Under the pieces are notes generated by a model. The model searched no databases. It had not been told where the DNA came from and saw only the letters and a program-made list of their open reading frames with translations. A stretch of 64,000 nucleotides of DNA from Clostridiales bacterium (GTDB lineage: Bacteria > Bacillota > Clostridia > Caldicoprobacterales > UBA3941), in assembly GCA_012735575.1 (NCBI GenBank), contig JAAYGY010000023.1:10374-74373 (forward strand), in the 5' to 3' direction. Below are positions 22,383 through 29,697 of this stretch, piece after piece. The position numbers and the translations under genes are program-made. The stretch's first letter is position 1, and each line of letters starts with the position of its first letter.

Positions 22383-23240
22383 TTATTTACTTACATATAC
22401 GTCATATTTATCCCATATGTCTTCTAGAATAGAAAAACCTGAAGCTACTTCAGGACTTTTTCTCATCCCAATACCTACAATTAGTGCATTTATTAGGCTT
22501 AAAGGAGCTACTAGAGAATCAACAAAGGATGCCATATCGCTTCTAGCAAGTAAAGTATAATCAGAATTAGAAGCTAGTGGAGAAAGAGAACTATCAGTTA
22601 ATGCTACGGTTGTAGCTCCTCTTTCCTTAGCAAAGGACATGGCCTCTATAGTTCTAGTTGCATATCGGGGATAACTAATCCCTATGAGTATATCTTCACT
22701 ATTTATGTGTATCAACTGCTCCAATATATCATTAACTCCCGAGGTAACAATTCTAACATTGCTGAAAATAAAACTTAGATAATAGCCCATAAATTGTGCT
22801 AAAGGTGCAGCACTTCTTAGACCTAATACATATATGTTCCTTGCATTCAGAATGCTGTGAATCACTTGATCAAAAACCCCAATATCAGCTTCTTCTATAG
22901 TTCTACGGATATTGTTCATATCTGCCTTTAATACATTTTTTAGAATCATTGATTGATCTAAGTCAGAGGACATTTCTATTCTTTGGACAGTAGTCAGCTT
23001 ATTCCGTATAAGCTCTTGAAGGGCTTTTTGAAGTTTGGGATATCCATCATATCCTAACATATTAGCAAACCGGACCACAGTAGATTCGCTAACCCCTACC
23101 ATTTCACCTAACCTAGAAGCGGTCATAAAAGCTGCTTTATCATAATTGTTAATGATATATTCTGAAATCAGCTTCTGGCCTTTGCTCATTCTCTTAAAAT
23201 TTGTATTAATCCGATGGATTAAATTATGCTTTTCCGCCAT
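22383..23240 (-). CDS. MurR/RpiR family transcriptional regulator (HTH + SIS)
   Basis: MSKGQK.I.EYI, VSESTVVRFA..LGY.GY, ISYPRY and LTDS..SPLA motifs. ATG 23240 follows AGGAGG. Confidence 0.92.
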   Translation of the reverse strand: MAEKHNLIHRINTNFKRMSKGQKLISEYIINNYDKAAFMTASRLGEMVGVSESTVVRFANMLGYDGYPKLQKALQELIRNKLTTVQRIEMSSDLDQSMILKNVLKADMNNIRRTIEEADIGVFDQVIHSILNARNIYVLGLRSAAPLAQFMGYYLSFIFSNVRIVTSGVNDILEQLIHINSEDILIGISYPRYATRTIEAMSFAKERGATTVALTDSSLSPLASNSDYTLLARSDMASFVDSLVAPLSLINALIVGIGMRKSPEVASGFSILEDIWDKYDVYVSK

Positions 23241-23308
23241 TATAATCCTCCTGAAATTCATGATTTATAGCCTAAAGCAATTTTATTTTATCATAAACTA
23301 CATAATTT

Positions 23309-23373: not shown

Positions 23374-24015
23374 GTGGTTCAAGTTGATGATGCAGGTAGT
23401 GGAAGTCTTGTAGGAGGCACATGTATAGCTATTCTCCGAGTAGATACAGGTGAATATAAATATGAATTTATTCCTGTTAGTCTATATCAGAATGGGAACT
23501 TTTACCGCAAATATTATCTTGAAAAATGTAAGGATATAGTTATCAATCTGTTAAAAGACCTTCAAGTGAGTAAAGAGGAAAAGATTGAGATATGTCAAGG
23601 ATATATGTTTGATGCTGTTAGAAAGTATTTAGAGGAAAAGGGATATAATTGGAGAAGCACAAGGATATTGGATCCATTACAGTCCATAATAGAACAAACC
23701 TTTAATGAATATGCATTGGAATTAGGGGTACCCATTCAATATGTTAAGTATACAAAATATCCCTTACACTTTCATCGTATTCTAAGATGGGTATACGCCG
23801 ACTATCAAAAACGTTGTAAGATGTGTAAAACCGATTGGAAAAGCTTTAAGAAATATGGTTATCTGAATCTATCTATTTCTTATGATCATTTATACAAAAA
23901 GAATTATACTTGTTTGCGGTGTGGTAAAAAAATAATTCCAGGCAGCAAAGTCAAAGTTTTAAATTATATAAGCAACCGCCCTAATACGATTTATCTGCAC
24001 ACCAATTGTAATTGA
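23374..24015 (+). CDS. conserved hypothetical protein: RNase HII-like N-terminal motif plus C-terminal CxxC...HxxC zinc finger
   Basis: GTG start after GAGGTG. VDDAGSGSLVGG resembles VDEAGRGPLAGP; CLRC...HTNC at the C-terminus. Ends at a terminator. Confidence 0.8.
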   Translation: MVQVDDAGSGSLVGGTCIAILRVDTGEYKYEFIPVSLYQNGNFYRKYYLEKCKDIVINLLKDLQVSKEEKIEICQGYMFDAVRKYLEEKGYNWRSTRILDPLQSIIEQTFNEYALELGVPIQYVKYTKYPLHFHRILRWVYADYQKRCKMCKTDWKSFKKYGYLNLSISYDHLYKKNYTCLRCGKKIIPGSKVKVLNYISNRPNTIYLHTNCN

Positions 24016-24025
24016 TATAAAAATC

Positions 24026-24062
24026 AAGCCCAGAGGCATGTTCAAAGAATTGCTCTGGGCTT
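24026..24062. terminator. bidirectional terminator between the orphan gene and oadA
   Basis: AAGCCCAGAG...CTCTGGGCTT inverted repeat. Confidence 0.75.
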
Positions 24063-24071
24063 AAAATGATC

Positions 24072-25469
24072 TTAAACTGGATGAGTCATTTCTTCCATAT
24101 TGACAAGGGTGCTGTCTATTTTATACTTTTGAGCTTGACGATATTTGAAGAATTCTAAAGATACCTGTGGGAATGATGCATAGGATAATACATCTTCTTC
24201 CTGTTCCATATATTCCTTTATTTCTTCTCTATATTTGTCTAATTCTGGAGGAATATCGTCTGCAGGACGATGTTCTATAACTGGGGCATCCCCTATAATG
24301 GTCTTTCGAATTTCATCACTTACTTTGCCGGGTAGACGCCCGTACTCCCCTCTGATGAGAGCTTTTGATTCGTTGGTTATCATTTTGTATCTCTCACCTG
24401 TTAAAACGTTGAGCACTGCTTGAGTTCCTACAATTTGACTGGTAGGAGTTACAAGTGGAGGGAATCCAAAATCTTCTCGTACCCGTGGAACCTCCTTAAG
24501 AACTTCCTCAAATCTATCCTCGGCATTCTGCTGTTTTAGCTGAGACAGAAGATTGGATAGCATTCCACCTGGAACTTGATATATCAAAGTATTTATATCT
24601 ATATTTAATACTCTGGGATTTAAGAAACCTTCGTCAGCCAGTCTTTTTGCTACGCCTTTAAAATGATCAGCTATTTCATTTAATAGATTTAAATCTAAAC
24701 CTGTGTCCCATTCGGTACCCTGTAATGTAGCTACTAATGGTTCAGTTGCTGGTTGGGCAGTACCATTACCTAATGGAGACAAAGCTGTATCTACTACGTC
24801 TGCGCCAGCCTCAATAGCTTTCAGATAAACCATATCTCCAGTACCAGTAGTATTATGAGTGTGTACCTGGATAGGCACTTTTACTGTCTTTTTTAACTTG
24901 CTAACTAGCTCATAGGCAGTATAGGGTAAAAGCAAATTAGCCATGTCTTTTATACATATAGAATCTGCACCCATATTTTCCAATGTCTTTGCAAGATCAA
25001 CAAAATAATCAATTGTGTGTACTGGGCTTATAGTATAACATAAGGCTGCTTGAACGTGTCCCTTATATTTTTTGGTAGCCCTGATAGCCTGTTCCATATT
25101 CCTAACATCATTTAGAGCATCGAATATACGAATTATATCAATTCCATTTTCTATAGATTTTTTTACAAATTCATCTACAACATCATCAGCATAGTGTTTG
25201 TAGCCAAGTAAGTTTTGGCCTCGTAATAGCATTTGAAGTTTGGTGTTGGGAAGTGCTCTTCTTAAAACTCTTAGCCTTTCCCAAGGATCTTCTTTTAAGA
25301 AGCGGAGGCAGGAGTCAAAGGTAGCTCCACCCCACACTTCCATAGAATGATATCCTACTTTATCTAATTTATCTGCAACGGGAAGCATATCTTCCAGGCG
25401 CATTCTGGTCGCGGCCTGGGATTGATGGGCATCCCTTAAAATGGTATCAGTTATTTTAACCTTTGCCAT
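24072..25469 (-). CDS. oadA: oxaloacetate decarboxylase alpha / pyruvate carboxylase B-type carboxyltransferase without a biotin domain
   Basis: LRDAHQS..ATRMR, WGGATFD, IKDMA, HTHNT and QVPGGMLSN motifs; no MKM. ATG 25469 follows AGGAGG. Confidence 0.88.
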   Translation of the reverse strand: MAKVKITDTILRDAHQSQAATRMRLEDMLPVADKLDKVGYHSMEVWGGATFDSCLRFLKEDPWERLRVLRRALPNTKLQMLLRGQNLLGYKHYADDVVDEFVKKSIENGIDIIRIFDALNDVRNMEQAIRATKKYKGHVQAALCYTISPVHTIDYFVDLAKTLENMGADSICIKDMANLLLPYTAYELVSKLKKTVKVPIQVHTHNTTGTGDMVYLKAIEAGADVVDTALSPLGNGTAQPATEPLVATLQGTEWDTGLDLNLLNEIADHFKGVAKRLADEGFLNPRVLNIDINTLIYQVPGGMLSNLLSQLKQQNAEDRFEEVLKEVPRVREDFGFPPLVTPTSQIVGTQAVLNVLTGERYKMITNESKALIRGEYGRLPGKVSDEIRKTIIGDAPVIEHRPADDIPPELDKYREEIKEYMEQEEDVLSYASFPQVSLEFFKYRQAQKYKIDSTLVNMEEMTHPV

Positions 25470-25491
25470 ATTATAACCTCCTAAATTAAGA

Positions 25492-26652
25492 TTAGCCAAA
25501 TAGGTTTAGAAATACCCCGGCTGCAACTGCAGAGCCAATAACTCCTGCCACATTAGGTCCCATAGCATGCATAAGCAAAAAGTTACCTGGATTCTCCTTT
25601 TGACCTACTACTTGAGACACACGAGCAGCCATTGGCACAGCAGATACTCCAGCAGAACCAATTAAGGGGTTAATTTTTCCACCTGTCAACTTACACATAA
25701 CTTTGCCTAAGAGAACTCCTCCTGCTGTTCCACCAGCAAAGGCTAGCAATCCTAGACCGATTATTTTTAAGGTATCTGGAGTAAGGAAATTTTCTGCTGT
25801 TGCTGTAGCACCGACAGTAACACCTAGGAAAATTGTAATTATATTCATCAATTCGTTTTGTGCAGTTTTATTTAATCTATCAACTACAAAACTTTCTCTA
25901 AAAAGATTTCCCAGCATTAGCATACCTACTAATGGTGCTGCTGATGGCAGTAATAGAGAGACCAAAGTCGTAACAATAATAGGAAATACAATCTTTTCCA
26001 ATTTGGAAACTGGGCGTAACTGCTCCATAACAATTTGGCGTTCTTCTTTTGTGGTTAGAGCCTTCATAATAGGTGGTTGTATAATTGGTACTAAAGCCAT
26101 ATAAGAATAAGCTGCTACGGCTATAGCACCAAGATATTCTGGAGCTAACTTACTAGTTACAAATATGGCAGTTGGTCCATCGGCACCACCAATTATGCCA
26201 ATGGATGCTGCAACATTGGCGGGAAAACCTAGTAAAATAGCTAAAATAAAGGCTACAAATATTCCCAATTGAGCAGCGGCCCCTAGTAAAAGACTTTTGG
26301 GATTTGCTATTAGTGGACCGAAATCTGTCATAGCACCAACACCCATAAAAATTAATGGGGGATAGATGCCTAGTTTTACACCCATATATAAGTAATATAA
26401 TAGTCCTCCCGGTTGGAAATTCGCCTCTCCATAAACTCCTTGGGGAGGATCGTTCAGACCGGCCAGAGGTAAATTAGCCAATAGCATTCCAAAAGCTATT
26501 GGTAAAAGCAGCATTGGCTCATACTCTTTTTTAATAGCAAGATACAACAACACAAAGGATACTATTATCATTACACCTTGCTGCCATGAAATTTGTGCAA
26601 AACCTGAATCAGATAAAAAACCAACAATTACATCTACAAATGGTTTATCCAT
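25492..26652 (-). CDS. oadB: Na+-translocating decarboxylase beta subunit
   Basis: [33 protein letters not shown] and [14 protein letters not shown] motifs. Confidence 0.93.
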
Positions 26653-26683
26653 TAAAACTCCTCCTTGTTGCTATTTGGTATTT

Positions 26684-27100
26684 TTATTTAATGGCAATTA
26701 TAACATCTCCAGGATTAACTGATGCACCAGTAGCAACTTGGACGGAAACAACCTCACCATCTCTAGGGCTCATTATCTCATTTTCCATTTTCATTGCCTC
26801 TAAAATAGCTATTACATGTCCTTTTGATATTTTATCGCCTACTTTTACCTTTACGTCCAATATGGTTCCTGGCATAGGCGCTTTGATTGTTTCGGCATCT
26901 TGAGGAACTGCGCCACCTGTTGCAGGCTTAGAAGTTTCACTTTTTTGTGGTGCAGGTTGAGGTGCAGCAGTTGCTGCGGCTGGTACTGTTGTAGGTGCAG
27001 AAGGTGCACTAACAGTTACAGGGTTAGATGTTCCTTGACCTACTTCTTCCACTTCTACTTCATAAGATTTTCCATTAACAGTTATAACAAATTTTCTCAT
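26684..27100 (-). CDS. mmdC: biotin carboxyl carrier subunit (MmdC-like)
   Basis: ITVNGKSYEVEVEE, Ala/Pro linker and biotinylation motif EAMKMEN. Confidence 0.88.
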   Translation of the reverse strand: MRKFVITVNGKSYEVEVEEVGQGTSNPVTVSAPSAPTTVPAAATAAPQPAPQKSETSKPATGGAVPQDAETIKAPMPGTILDVKVKVGDKISKGHVIAILEAMKMENEIMSPRDGEVVSVQVATGASVNPGDVIIAIK

Positions 27101-27144
27101 CTTAGTATGTCCTCCTTTAATATTCTCATTTCTTTAATCAATTC

Positions 27145-27540
27145 TTATAATCTTCCAGCGATTTGCTGGTTTCGTCCTGTTATATTCCAAACAGGAGAAT
27201 TGTAAGGTATCCTTTTCACAGATCTAACTATTATGTCATGTGTTGAACGATTTAATGATGCCGCTATAGCAGCAGTTATAACTGCTATTAATTCTTCTTC
27301 ATCATCTGTCTCAGCATTGATACTTTCACTAGTAGTTGATGGGGAAATATTCATACTGGCTGAGCCTGTCTGGTTGATATCTTTATCTGCAGGGCCAGTT
27401 TCTTTCTTGCTCTTGTGTTGACTTGCATTGAGTATCTTGTTCATAAACTCAATAACACATATCAAGGCAATTAGAGCAACAAAAACTGTACCCATTCCTA
27501 AAACGATTACCTTAATACTCATTAGTAGCTGTTCTAACAT
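27145..27540 (-). CDS. OadG/MmdD family anchor subunit
   Basis: N-terminal TM GMGTVFVALIAL, EEELIAVITAAIAA and C-terminal W...GR motif. Confidence 0.85.
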   Translation of the reverse strand: MLEQLLMSIKVIVLGMGTVFVALIALICVIEFMNKILNASQHKSKKETGPADKDINQTGSASMNISPSTTSESINAETDDEEELIAVITAAIAASLNRSTHDIIVRSVKRIPYNSPVWNITGRNQQIAGRL

Positions 27541-27567
27541 GATAACCACCTCTCTTTCAGTGCACTA

Positions 27568-29118
27568 TTACACTGGTATATTTCCATGTTTTTTGGCAGG
27601 TCTGTTTTCCCTTTTACTTATTAACATCTCTAATGCACTGGCTATTCTTGGTCTTGTGGCTTCTGGTTCGATAATATCATCTATATAACCCCTAGCTGCT
27701 GCAATATAGGGATTTGCAAATCTATTTCTATACTCCTCAATCTTTTCCTGTCTGGTTTGCATTGGATCTTGAGAGTTTTCGATTTCTTTTCTAAATATGA
27801 TATTGGCCGCTCCCTCGGGTCCCATAACTGCTATTTCAGCAGTAGGCCATGCAAATACTAAATCAGCTCCCAGATGTTTACTGCTCATGGCAATATAAGC
27901 ACCACCATAGGCTTTTCTTAGAATAATATTAATCTTAGGAACTGTAGCCTCTGAGTATGCATATAGGAGTTTTGCACCATGTCTAATAACTCCGCCATGT
28001 TCTTGATCCACTCCAGGTAAATATCCGGGCACATCGGTAAAAGTGACCAAGGGAATATTAAAGGCATCGCAGAAACGGACAAAACGTGCTGCCTTATCTG
28101 AAGCATTTATATCTAAAGCCCCAGCCTTCACATTGGGCTGATTAGCAACAATACCTATAGTCTTACCATTTATGCGCCCAAATCCTACTACTATGTTGGT
28201 TGCATACAAGGCATGTACTTCAAAGAAATCCCCGTTATCTACAACAGCTCTTATAACATCCTTAACATCATAAGATTTGTTGGGGTTATCAGGTATTATG
28301 GAATTAAGTTCAGGAGCTAAACGATTTAAATCATCACTGCACTCATATAAGAGTGTATCTTCTAAGTTGTTTTGGGGAAGAAAACTTAAAAGCTTTCTAA
28401 TGGACTCAAAACATGATTCTTCAGAATCACTTAAAAAATGAGCTACACCACTAATCTCGTTATGGGCTGTAGCACCACCTAATTCCTCTGCCGAAATAGA
28501 TTCACCAGTCACAGCCTCAACTACCTGTGGTCCTGTAATGAACATTTTGCTAATGTTGTTCACCATAAAGACAAAGTCTGTTAAGGCAGGAGAATAAACG
28601 GCTCCACCAGCACAAGGACCTAATATGACTGAAATTTGAGGAATAACTCCCGAAGCTAATGTATTGCGATAAAAAATGTCCCCATAACCACTTAAGGCAT
28701 CTATTCCCTCCTGAATTCTCGCGCCTCCAGAATCATTAATGCTTATAATGGGACATCCCATCTTCATAGCCATATCTTGAACTTTTGCAATTTTTTTGGC
28801 ATGCATTTCACCTAAAGAACCACCAATAACAGTAAAATCCTGAGCATATAGATAAACTGGTCTTTCTTCAATGGTAGCATACCCTGCTACAACTCCATCC
28901 CCAGGAGCATTTACGTTATCCATGCCAAAATCATTAGAGCGGTGCTGCACAAAAGCGTCGATTTCAACAAAGCTGCCGGGATCTACAAGCTTTTCGATTC
29001 TTTCACGTGCAGTCAATTTCCCGCTTTGATGCTGCTTTGCAATTCTATCAGGTCCTCCACCTTGGCGAATGGCGACCTTGCGATCTTGCATTTCCTGAAT
29101 CTTCTTTTCTACGCTCAT
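27568..29118 (-). CDS. mmdA: acyl-CoA carboxyltransferase (methylmalonyl-CoA decarboxylase alpha / PccB-like)
   Basis: GKLTARERI, DSGGARIQEG, GPCAGGAVY, DVPGYLPG..QE, RKAYGGAY and KKHGNIP motifs. Confidence 0.88.
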   Translation of the reverse strand: MSVEKKIQEMQDRKVAIRQGGGPDRIAKQHQSGKLTARERIEKLVDPGSFVEIDAFVQHRSNDFGMDNVNAPGDGVVAGYATIEERPVYLYAQDFTVIGGSLGEMHAKKIAKVQDMAMKMGCPIISINDSGGARIQEGIDALSGYGDIFYRNTLASGVIPQISVILGPCAGGAVYSPALTDFVFMVNNISKMFITGPQVVEAVTGESISAEELGGATAHNEISGVAHFLSDSEESCFESIRKLLSFLPQNNLEDTLLYECSDDLNRLAPELNSIIPDNPNKSYDVKDVIRAVVDNGDFFEVHALYATNIVVGFGRINGKTIGIVANQPNVKAGALDINASDKAARFVRFCDAFNIPLVTFTDVPGYLPGVDQEHGGVIRHGAKLLYAYSEATVPKINIILRKAYGGAYIAMSSKHLGADLVFAWPTAEIAVMGPEGAANIIFRKEIENSQDPMQTRQEKIEEYRNRFANPYIAAARGYIDDIIEPEATRPRIASALEMLISKRENRPAKKHGNIPV

Positions 29119-29184
29119 TCATAACCCTCCATATATAATATTGAAAGTGTAAAATTACACATTCTCGCCTATGTTCTATTATTC

Positions 29185-29206
29185 TACATCAGAATCCTTT
29201 TTTCCT
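29185..29206 (-). promoter_or_regulatory. weak SigH-like promoter candidate upstream of mmdA
   Basis: AGGA...GAAT with an 18-nt spacer, one longer than the consensus. Confidence 0.25.
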
Positions 29207-29247
29207 TCTTATTTTTCTATTTATTTTTTGAATATATGTAGTACTTT

Positions 29248-29697
29248 TTAACCGCATGTGTGGTTAAAAAACTTTTCTACATCCAAAAAACTAAAGGAAT
29301 CTGTTCCTATATCATCAATAATTAATTTCCCAATTTCATTACTTTGTAAAAGACTAATACTTTCTGATCTTTCAAAACCAACACAACTGAAGGCATTATC
29401 TATTTCTTTTTTATAAAAAATGATTTTAATATTGTATCTATCTAGAATATATACAGATGCTCTTAACAACCCTTCTTTAAGCTCATCATACTCAGGCCCT
29501 TCTGGAACTATAATCATCTGTATCATTGCACTTTGTTTATGGGTATATCCTGTAAGACCCCCTTTAATAGTACCATCGATATCAATTAATACACCAAATT
29601 TTTCTCCTATAGGAGGTACAGTTAGCAAGGGTCTTAAATCATCATTTGAATAAATAACCTGAAGATCTTCTATATCCATTTTTCTAAAGTGCAGCAT
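29248..29697 (-). CDS. hypothetical protein, possibly a degenerate GNAT fold
   Basis: RBS AAGGGGG; 149 aa. Starts with FRKMDIEDL, has LLRA and CVGFE segments, ends FFNHTCG. Confidence 0.7.
   Translation of the reverse strand: MLHFRKMDIEDLQVIYSNDDLRPLLTVPPIGEKFGVLIDIDGTIKGGLTGYTHKQSAMIQMIIVPEGPEYDELKEGLLRASVYILDRYNIKIIFYKKEIDNAFSCVGFERSESISLLQSNEIGKLIIDDIGTDSFSFLDVEKFFNHTCG

Follow-up and report, generated by a model that had tools for sequence, protein, structure and literature searches.

What is the function of an operon in which two different carboxyltransferases and a Na+ pump are encoded together with one biotin carrier? This question is raised by a stretch of 64,000 nucleotides from a Clostridiales bacterium (assembly GCA_012735575.1, contig JAAYGY010000023.1, positions 10,374 to 74,373), hereafter referred to as the window. 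In the present study, we favor, with moderate confidence, the reading that the genes specify a Na+-translocating oxaloacetate decarboxylase (OAD) of the split-subunit, Enterococcus type, joined by a 12S/MmdA-type carboxyltransferase (CT), the whole acting as a transcarboxylase that replaces acetyl-CoA carboxylase (ACC) and has a Na+-pump outlet. Five tightly packed minus-strand open reading frames (ORFs), in the order CT, anchor, carrier, OadB and OadA, occupy positions 24072-29118 with intergenic gaps of 18-44 nt. These genes and the element that follows them are listed below.

27568..29118, minus strand: MmdA/12S/PccB-type acyl-CoA CT, 516 aa; Carboxyl_trans, 672 bits
27145..27549, minus strand: OadG/MmdD-like membrane anchor, 134 aa; OAD_gamma, 71 bits; TIGR01195, 59 bits
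26684..27100, minus strand: free biotin carboxyl carrier, 138 aa; Biotin_lipoyl, EAMKME motif (Lys104)
25492..26652, minus strand: OadB-type Na+-translocating carboxybiotin decarboxylase, 386 aa, intact; OAD_beta, 548 bits
24072..25469, minus strand: OadA/5S-type oxaloacetate/pyruvate carboxyltransferase, 465 aa; HMGL-like and PYC_OADA
24017..24060, minus strand: terminator-like hairpin 3' of oadA; 8-bp GC-rich stem GCCCAGAG/CTCTGGGC, 17-nt loop, T-rich tail

The coordinates and families of the five genes, which had been proposed in a sequence-only reading of the window, were confirmed, the families through Pfam and NCBIfam matches; all five genes are on the minus strand. OadA, OadB, the anchor and a biotin domain are all present, and the set is thus assigned, on the basis of these matches, to the putative Na+-translocating OADs (EC 7.2.4.2).

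The genome itself, a metagenome-assembled genome (MAG) of 2.59 Mb in 105 contigs with a completeness of 96.3%, provides the first line of evidence; the window lies on contig C101. The CT of the operon is the sole Carboxyl_trans protein in the genome, its OadA is the sole PYC_OADA protein, and its carrier is the sole biotin protein, being the only Biotin_lipoyl match with a C-terminal AMKM, as the other two matches are lipoyl E2 acyltransferases. Because no other biotin protein is encoded, both transferases must use the single carrier of the operon, as the sequence-only reading had supposed. That reading had also noted the absence of biotin carboxylase, methylmalonyl-CoA mutase and epimerase from the window, and profile searches extended this absence to the whole assembly: no match to PF02785 (Biotin_carb_C) was found, PF03255 (ACCA) and PF01039 matched only the CT of the operon, no mutase was detected, and the best VOC-family protein, searched for with verified epimerases from methylmalonyl-CoA decarboxylase (MMD) loci, reached 43.6 bits against a TIGR03081 cut-off of 115. 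In other words, none of accABCD, pyc, mutAB and mce was found in the assembly. The two parts by which AccABCD is recognized, biotin carboxylase and AccA/AccD, are both missing, and therefore neither ACC nor pyruvate carboxylase is present in the genome.

The machinery that consumes malonyl-CoA is complete. Type II fatty acid synthesis (FAS II) is represented by a fapR-plsX-fabH-fabD-fabG-acpP-fabF cluster on contig C6, together with fabZ and fabI (392 bits, cut-off 370). FabK was also considered through the Pfam NMO family; the best match was a pyrD-like gene beside pyrK and carB, which is not FabK, and FabI was found instead. A GTP-dependent phosphoenolpyruvate carboxykinase (PEPCK) is encoded (1039 bits), no ATP-type PEPCK was found in the genome, and no citrate lyase alpha subunit was found in the whole assembly. 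Judged from this gene content, the operon appears to be the only plausible malonyl-CoA route for fatty acids in this ACC-less genome.

Herein, we propose the following scheme. Oxaloacetate would be formed from phosphoenolpyruvate (PEP) and CO2 through the GTP-dependent PEPCK, the gene of which is present. OadA would transfer the carboxyl group of oxaloacetate to the sole biotin carrier with the release of pyruvate, as suggested by its family membership and conserved metal-site motifs. The MmdA-like CT might then hand the carboxyl group to acetyl-CoA, yielding malonyl-CoA for FAS II, and CT, carrier and OadA would together constitute an ATP-free oxaloacetate:acetyl-CoA transcarboxylase standing in for ACC. 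As a second outlet, OadB would decarboxylate carboxybiotin and export Na+, so that energy is conserved on the route from PEP through oxaloacetate to pyruvate. The choice of substrates, the direction of the reactions, the partition between the two fates and the assembly of a single five-protein particle are what we infer.

The presence and absence of genes, their phyletic pattern and the conservation of residues were observed directly, and the pattern was surveyed in 150 genomes of the class Clostridia, each at least 90% complete. Biotin carboxylase was found in 34 of these genomes and FabF in 99, and canonical ACC is the minority solution among the sampled Clostridia. A close MmdA-like CT was present in 62 genomes and a mutase in 14. 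In all 14 mutase-bearing genomes, the mutase lies on the contig of the CT, only a few kb away, and the CTs of these genomes are true MMDs; in the 10 of them in which OadA is something other than full-length pyruvate carboxylase, it is located on another contig or far away, or is absent. The remaining 48 genomes with a close CT are free of mutase and belong to 23 families; FabF is present in 48 of 48, biotin carboxylase in only 2 of 48, and this mutase-free CT type does not occur in any of the 51 FabF-less genomes. The 99 FabF-bearing genomes comprise 46 with the transcarboxylase type and no biotin carboxylase, 2 with both, 26 with biotin carboxylase only and 25 with neither, so that biotin carboxylase occurs in 28 of the 99; among the 25 genomes with neither, the CT is mutase-linked in 10, divergent in 6 and missing in 9. 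The Thermotoga maritima genome, used as a control, gave matches to CT, PYC_OADA, OAD_beta and FabF and none to biotin carboxylase or mutase, and Thermotogales and Spirochaetes have been noted to be without the ACC biotin carboxylase (PMC3199775).

A side observation concerns ten FabF-bearing genomes without biotin carboxylase (G044, G064, G079, G096, G097, G109, G126, G135, G152 and G177), in which the mutase-linked MMD alpha subunit is the sole close CT. OadA is carried on another contig in 9 of these 10 genomes, and the MMD alpha subunit may double as the source of malonyl-CoA.

A survey of the order to which the window belongs (39 genomes, 4 families, 20 genera) gave a similarly sharp distribution: biotin carboxylase 0/39, mutase 0/39, CT 32/39, OadA 38/39, OadB 39/39 and FabF 35/39. 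The pump is inside the operon in families f1, f2 and f4, and family f3 has a form without the beta subunit (OadB) together with a separate OadA-OadB pump. The joint loss of CT and FabF in two genomes of the order (G014 and G015) is suggestive; three incomplete MAGs (G016, G013 and G018) break the pattern, and these cases were not relied on. The five-gene arrangement is also seen in a Monoglobus MAG (L005); of 20 operons fetched from further families of Clostridia, 12 have it as well, and the remaining 8, like locus L008, show the arrangement CT-(small G)-carrier-OadA with no beta subunit. In C. thermocellum, the products of Clo1313_1523-1526 are presumably a CT, a gamma-like protein of small size, a carrier and OadA, without OadB, and the cluster would match this beta-less form.

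Phylogenies of both transferases had been suggested as a check on the sequence-only reading. In a FastTree phylogeny of 100 CTs, those of the five-gene and beta-less operons of Clostridia form one clade with an SH-like support of 99, which excludes both the MMD alpha subunits found in Negativicutes and Bacteroidota and the Desulfobacterota transcarboxylases. The presence of the beta subunit switches at least four times within this clade, and the OadA tree is largely congruent with the CT tree. We take the transcarboxylase to be the conserved core and the beta pump to be an accessory that Clostridia have repeatedly acquired or shed.

The features of the individual subunits are consistent with the proposed roles. 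The nearest solved structure of the CT is T. maritima 1VRG (777 bits), followed by the beta subunits of propionyl-CoA carboxylase (PCC) and the 12S subunit 1ON3 (679 bits). GcdA 3GF3 reached only 118 bits, and a glutaconyl-CoA decarboxylase (GcdABCD) was rejected on this ground. The CT is 59-94% identical across 23 aligned operons, with the catalytic glycines invariant. Ile409 of the CT (GGAYIAM) aligns with D422 of PccB and is conserved in at least 90% of the CT clade; the PDB entries of Streptomyces coelicolor PccB and its D422 N/A/I/V mutants mark this position as an engineered substrate-specificity site. OadA exceeds the cut-off of NF008985, 'oxaloacetate decarboxylase subunit alpha' (796.6 bits, cut-off 718), has no association or biotin domain, and is nearest to Vibrio cholerae OadA 2NX9 (539 bits), followed by PycB and the 5S subunit 1RQB (473 bits). 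By direct reading, its sequence contains RDAHQS, IKDMA and HTHN, which we take to be the metal-site ligand and carbamyl-lysine motifs. The alignment of OadB with Salmonella OadB 6IVA (408 bits) spans its length, and the positions aligned to D203, Y229, N373, G377, S382 and R389 are all conserved; these are presumably the residues identified as essential by mutagenesis of the Klebsiella protein.

In the carrier, an Ala/Pro linker joins an N-terminal MRKFVITVNGKSYEVEVEE motif to a biotinyl domain that bears EAMKME and matches the 1.3S entries 1DCZ and 1O78. Over its entire length, the carrier is aligned with the final ~115 positions of the models of full-length OadA and PycB (NF010643 positions 481-594 of 595). 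Its N-terminal MRKFxIxVNGxSYEVEVEE is near-invariant in five-gene and beta-less operons alike and resembles the assembly peptide of 1.3S. The anchor consists of an N-terminal transmembrane (TM) helix, a variable linker and a C-terminal module, DEEELIAVITAAIAASLN...P.WN, that is conserved in both operon types. In some beta-less operons (e.g. L108:2179-2451 and L115:3377-3571), an OadG-like protein without the TM helix retains this module (ELIAVIAAAIA...P.WN). Because the module survives without the helix, this result suggests that it binds the soluble transcarboxylase core, and that the TM helix ties the core to the membrane when the beta subunit is present. A complex prediction from alignments of the CT versus carrier residues 1-45 and anchor residues 78-134 gave no answer (score 0.00) and was not used as evidence.

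Several known systems resemble the operon in part. The membrane OAD of Enterococcus faecalis, OadA/OadB/OadD/OadH, as outlined in PMC6193673 with reference to Repizo et al. 2013, likewise has an alpha subunit split into a CT without a biotin domain and a free biotin acceptor, an OadG-like small subunit and an OadB pump. Unlike that system, the present operon is headed by an extra 516-aa acyl-CoA CT and its genes are outside any cit locus, in a genome without citrate lyase; oxaloacetate would come here from PEPCK, whereas it comes there from citrate. The methylmalonyl-CoA:pyruvate transcarboxylase of Propionibacterium (EC 2.1.3.1) similarly has 12S-like (1ON3), 5S-like (1RQB) and 1.3S-type parts encoded together, and the P. 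shermanii enzyme accepts acetyl-CoA as well (PMC8085960). That class is soluble and belongs to a mutase/epimerase pathway, whereas here an anchor and a Na+ pump are included in the operon, no mutase, epimerase or other methylmalonyl-CoA metabolism is present in the genome, and the proposed acceptor is acetyl-CoA.

With respect to the proposed reaction, the closest precedent is the metabolic model iCth446 of C. thermocellum, an organism that 'lacks a standard acetyl-carboxylase', in which Clo1313_1523-1526 serve as a 'putative transcarboxylase' for malonyl-CoA (PMC5414155). The same reaction is proposed there in an organism without a standard ACC, with four genes and as a modelling gap-fill. 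Thus, the idea that a transcarboxylase stands in for ACC is not new. A fused acetyl-CoA/pyruvate transcarboxylase of Entamoeba histolytica has also been reported to make malonyl-CoA, according to the account in PMC8136499, which cites Clark 2007 and Barbosa-Cabrera 2012. As far as that account goes, ATP-free malonyl-CoA formation with acetyl-CoA plus oxaloacetate as substrates in an ACC-less anaerobe, as proposed here, is shared with the amoeba, and its enzyme differs in being one fused eukaryotic polypeptide without pump or anchor that serves fatty acid elongation.

The remaining known system, the Na+-translocating MMD of Veillonella and Propionigenium (MmdABCDE), leads to the rival explanations. 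A classical MMD of the succinate-to-propionate pathway, with OadA as an unrelated passenger, would account for the alpha CT of the same family, the delta/gamma-type anchor, the free carrier and the beta subunit in the order alpha-delta-gamma-beta (mmdA-delta-gamma-beta), and TIGR01117 (mmdA) is indeed the top NCBIfam match of the CT. The score of 906.5 bits is below the cut-off of 998.8, the CT belongs to another clade, and the OadA-type transferase is additional to the known enzyme. Moreover, no mutase exists in this genome or in any genome of the order, no true epimerase was found, and in the mutase-bearing Clostridia the mutase sits next to the CT with OadA mostly elsewhere or absent. A propionate-type MMD (EC 7.2.4.3), lacking both the expected TIGR01117 score and clade and a genomic source of methylmalonyl-CoA, is rejected as far as genomics goes and is considered highly improbable. 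With no mutase or epimerase found in the genome, the part of the sequence-only reading in which Na+ was pumped at the expense of methylmalonyl-CoA is not supported, whereas the shared carrier, the absence of ACC, the complete FAS II, PEPCK as the oxaloacetate source, and a CT that tracks FabF and excludes biotin carboxylase all support other parts of it. Another explanation is that only an OAD Na+ pump is encoded, that the MmdA-like subunit is a relic or a second input decarboxylating malonyl-CoA or methylmalonyl-CoA, and that FAS II receives malonyl-CoA from an unrecognised source. OadA, carrier, anchor and OadB do constitute a complete split OAD of the E. faecalis kind, and the nine FabF-bearing genomes with neither biotin carboxylase nor CT, as well as the divergent CT-OadA operons of FabF-less genomes discussed below, point in this direction. 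The degree of identity across 23 operons and the invariant catalytic glycines argue against a relic; no methylmalonyl-CoA route was found in the genome, and malonyl-CoA would be reached only through the CT of the operon. Pumping is impossible in the 8 of 20 fetched operons that keep CT, carrier and OadA without the beta subunit, and FabF accompanies the mutase-free CT in all 48 genomes of that type. We therefore regard a function in pumping alone as unlikely.

The pump might also run backwards, with OadB using the Na+ gradient to carboxylate biotin from CO2 or bicarbonate and the two transferases making malonyl-CoA and oxaloacetate, thereby replacing the ATP-dependent biotin carboxylase of ACC and pyruvate carboxylase. 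The absence of any kind of biotin carboxylase, and hence of both enzymes, would be explained, as would the use of one carrier by the pump and both acceptor-specific transferases, and Dimroth and Hilpert, in work dated 1984, are said to have driven the carboxylation of pyruvate and acetyl-CoA in vitro by Na+ gradients through pump reversal. Oxaloacetate is already supplied by the GTP-dependent PEPCK, transcarboxylation must be the mode of action of the beta-less operons that sister families carry, f3 of the same order among them, and a fermenter that pays ATP for its Na+ gradient would save nothing. Thus, a reversed carboxylase is possible, yet superfluous given PEPCK, and appears quite improbable. 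A wider version, which we hold to be speculative and distinctly unlikely, is that the five-protein particle is a bidirectional carboxybiotin hub replacing the biotin carboxylase of both ACC and pyruvate carboxylase: carboxybiotin would be drawn from oxaloacetate or, with OadB reversed, from CO2, as set by the Na+ gradient and the acetyl-CoA supply, and would be spent on malonyl-CoA, oxaloacetate or Na+ export, such that lipid synthesis, anaplerosis and membrane energetics are coupled via one swinging arm. Finally, a soluble transcarboxylase (CT, carrier and OadA) and a membrane OAD (OadA, carrier, anchor and OadB) might be two separate enzymes that draw on common subunit pools and never form one particle. 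That the soluble trio can stand alone is shown by the beta-less forms, and the transcarboxylase of P. shermanii is soluble; the anchor module kept without its TM helix suggests binding to the core, and the gene order interleaves the parts of the two supposed enzymes. This arrangement is possible, albeit rather doubtful.

Several points weigh against an ACC-replacing transcarboxylase with a Na+-pump outlet. No enzyme assay for any bacterial member is found in the literature, and a pump in the same complex could waste the carboxybiotin needed for lipid synthesis. The genome is a MAG, and the gene absences rest on a completeness of 96%. The operon lies away from the fab cluster, and no FapR-like box was found upstream of it (29119-29247); if the operon feeds FAS II, co-regulation by FapR is not visible in the sequence. 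Desulfobacterota transcarboxylases and some MMD-type loci share the Ile at the D422 position. Because Ile/Leu are likewise found in other transcarboxylase-type loci, with Asp/Cys in PCC-like loci, this residue would permit the use of acetyl-CoA and is not diagnostic of it. At the thresholds applied, 9 of the 99 FabF-bearing genomes gave neither biotin carboxylase nor CT, so the class must have some further source of malonyl-CoA or be affected by a detection gap. Divergent CTs lie beside OadA in 8 FabF-less genomes, 7 of which are without biotin carboxylase, and therefore not all such operons serve FAS II. Moreover, the census genomes are related, such that phyletic counts overstate independence and Fisher values overstate significance; nevertheless, the pattern of FabF, CT and biotin carboxylase spans many families.

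Two observations adjoin these points. A FapR-operator-like sequence, ATGACCAGATACTAA, precedes the fapR-plsX-fab cluster (G000:C6:17618-17760). In the seven genomes without FabF and biotin carboxylase (G061, G078, G082, G106, G108, G112 and G134), the divergent CTs match Carboxyl_trans with E-values of 1e-105 to 1e-120 and are located ~2.8-3.2 kb from OadA, a spacing that fits a pump-containing operon; their role cannot be the supply of malonyl-CoA for FAS II.

To our knowledge, ACC is treated as the universal, essential and druggable gateway to bacterial fatty acid synthesis. If an ATP-free transcarboxylase indeed takes its place, a large fraction of the Clostridia of gut, rumen and digesters would make malonyl-CoA without ATP, with the net reaction PEP + CO2 + GDP + acetyl-CoA -> pyruvate + GTP + malonyl-CoA, and in roughly half of the fetched operons (12/20) a Na+ pump would sit within the operon of the malonyl-CoA-forming enzyme. 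This would alter metabolic models and ATP yields, the interpretation of isotope data and the spectrum to be expected for ACC inhibitors, and an ATP-saving module would become available for engineering malonyl-CoA-derived products. In the literature search, neither a bacterial enzyme of this type nor its pump-containing form turned up as the subject of an experimental study, and searches on 'oxaloacetate:acetyl-CoA transcarboxylase' and on mmdA with fatty acid synthesis gave nothing beyond the papers cited above. The operon is real and widespread and, judged from its sequence, a variant of known biotin enzymes; the present study contributes an audit of the whole genome, the finding that biotin carboxylase and mutase are absent across the order, and a census of the class in which the mutase serves as control.

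With regard to habitat and expression, anaerobic-digester and biogas metagenomes contain the stretch at ~99% of the words sampled. Digester metatranscriptomes of four studies yielded RNA-library contigs (at least 99% identity) that cover the five genes and bridge all four junctions, which is consistent with transcription of the operon as one unit; this evidence is weak because it consists of contigs and DNA carry-over is possible. The RNA-library contigs of one run extend from mmdA into the 149-aa gene at 29248-29697. The consensus promoter/terminator scan gave fewer matches than shuffled sequence and no usable promoter. The terminator-like hairpin was read from the sequence and was missed by the consensus scan because its loop is long. 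The oadA ORF is open up to a TTG at 25499 (24072-25499, 475 aa); the start is probably the ATG at 25469, since relatives are 465 aa in length and the NCBIfam alignment begins at residue 11.

Two more OadB paralogs are present in the genome (G000:C72:97130-98412 and G000:C79:3758-5576), with no alpha subunit or carrier nearby. The former has an in-frame TGA where relatives carry Gly and is followed by a small OadG-related ORF of 45 aa; the latter is frameshifted and preceded by a 215-aa protein without a Pfam or NCBIfam match. Most genomes of the order carry such a second OadB copy. Around the operon, the flanking ORFs at 29248-29697 (minus strand, 149 aa) and 23374-24015 (plus strand, 213 aa) match no Pfam family above threshold, the latter showing only a sub-threshold hint of an SprT-like zinc ribbon, and a regulator of the RpiR/SIS family is encoded just downstream of the operon at 22383-23261 on the minus strand.

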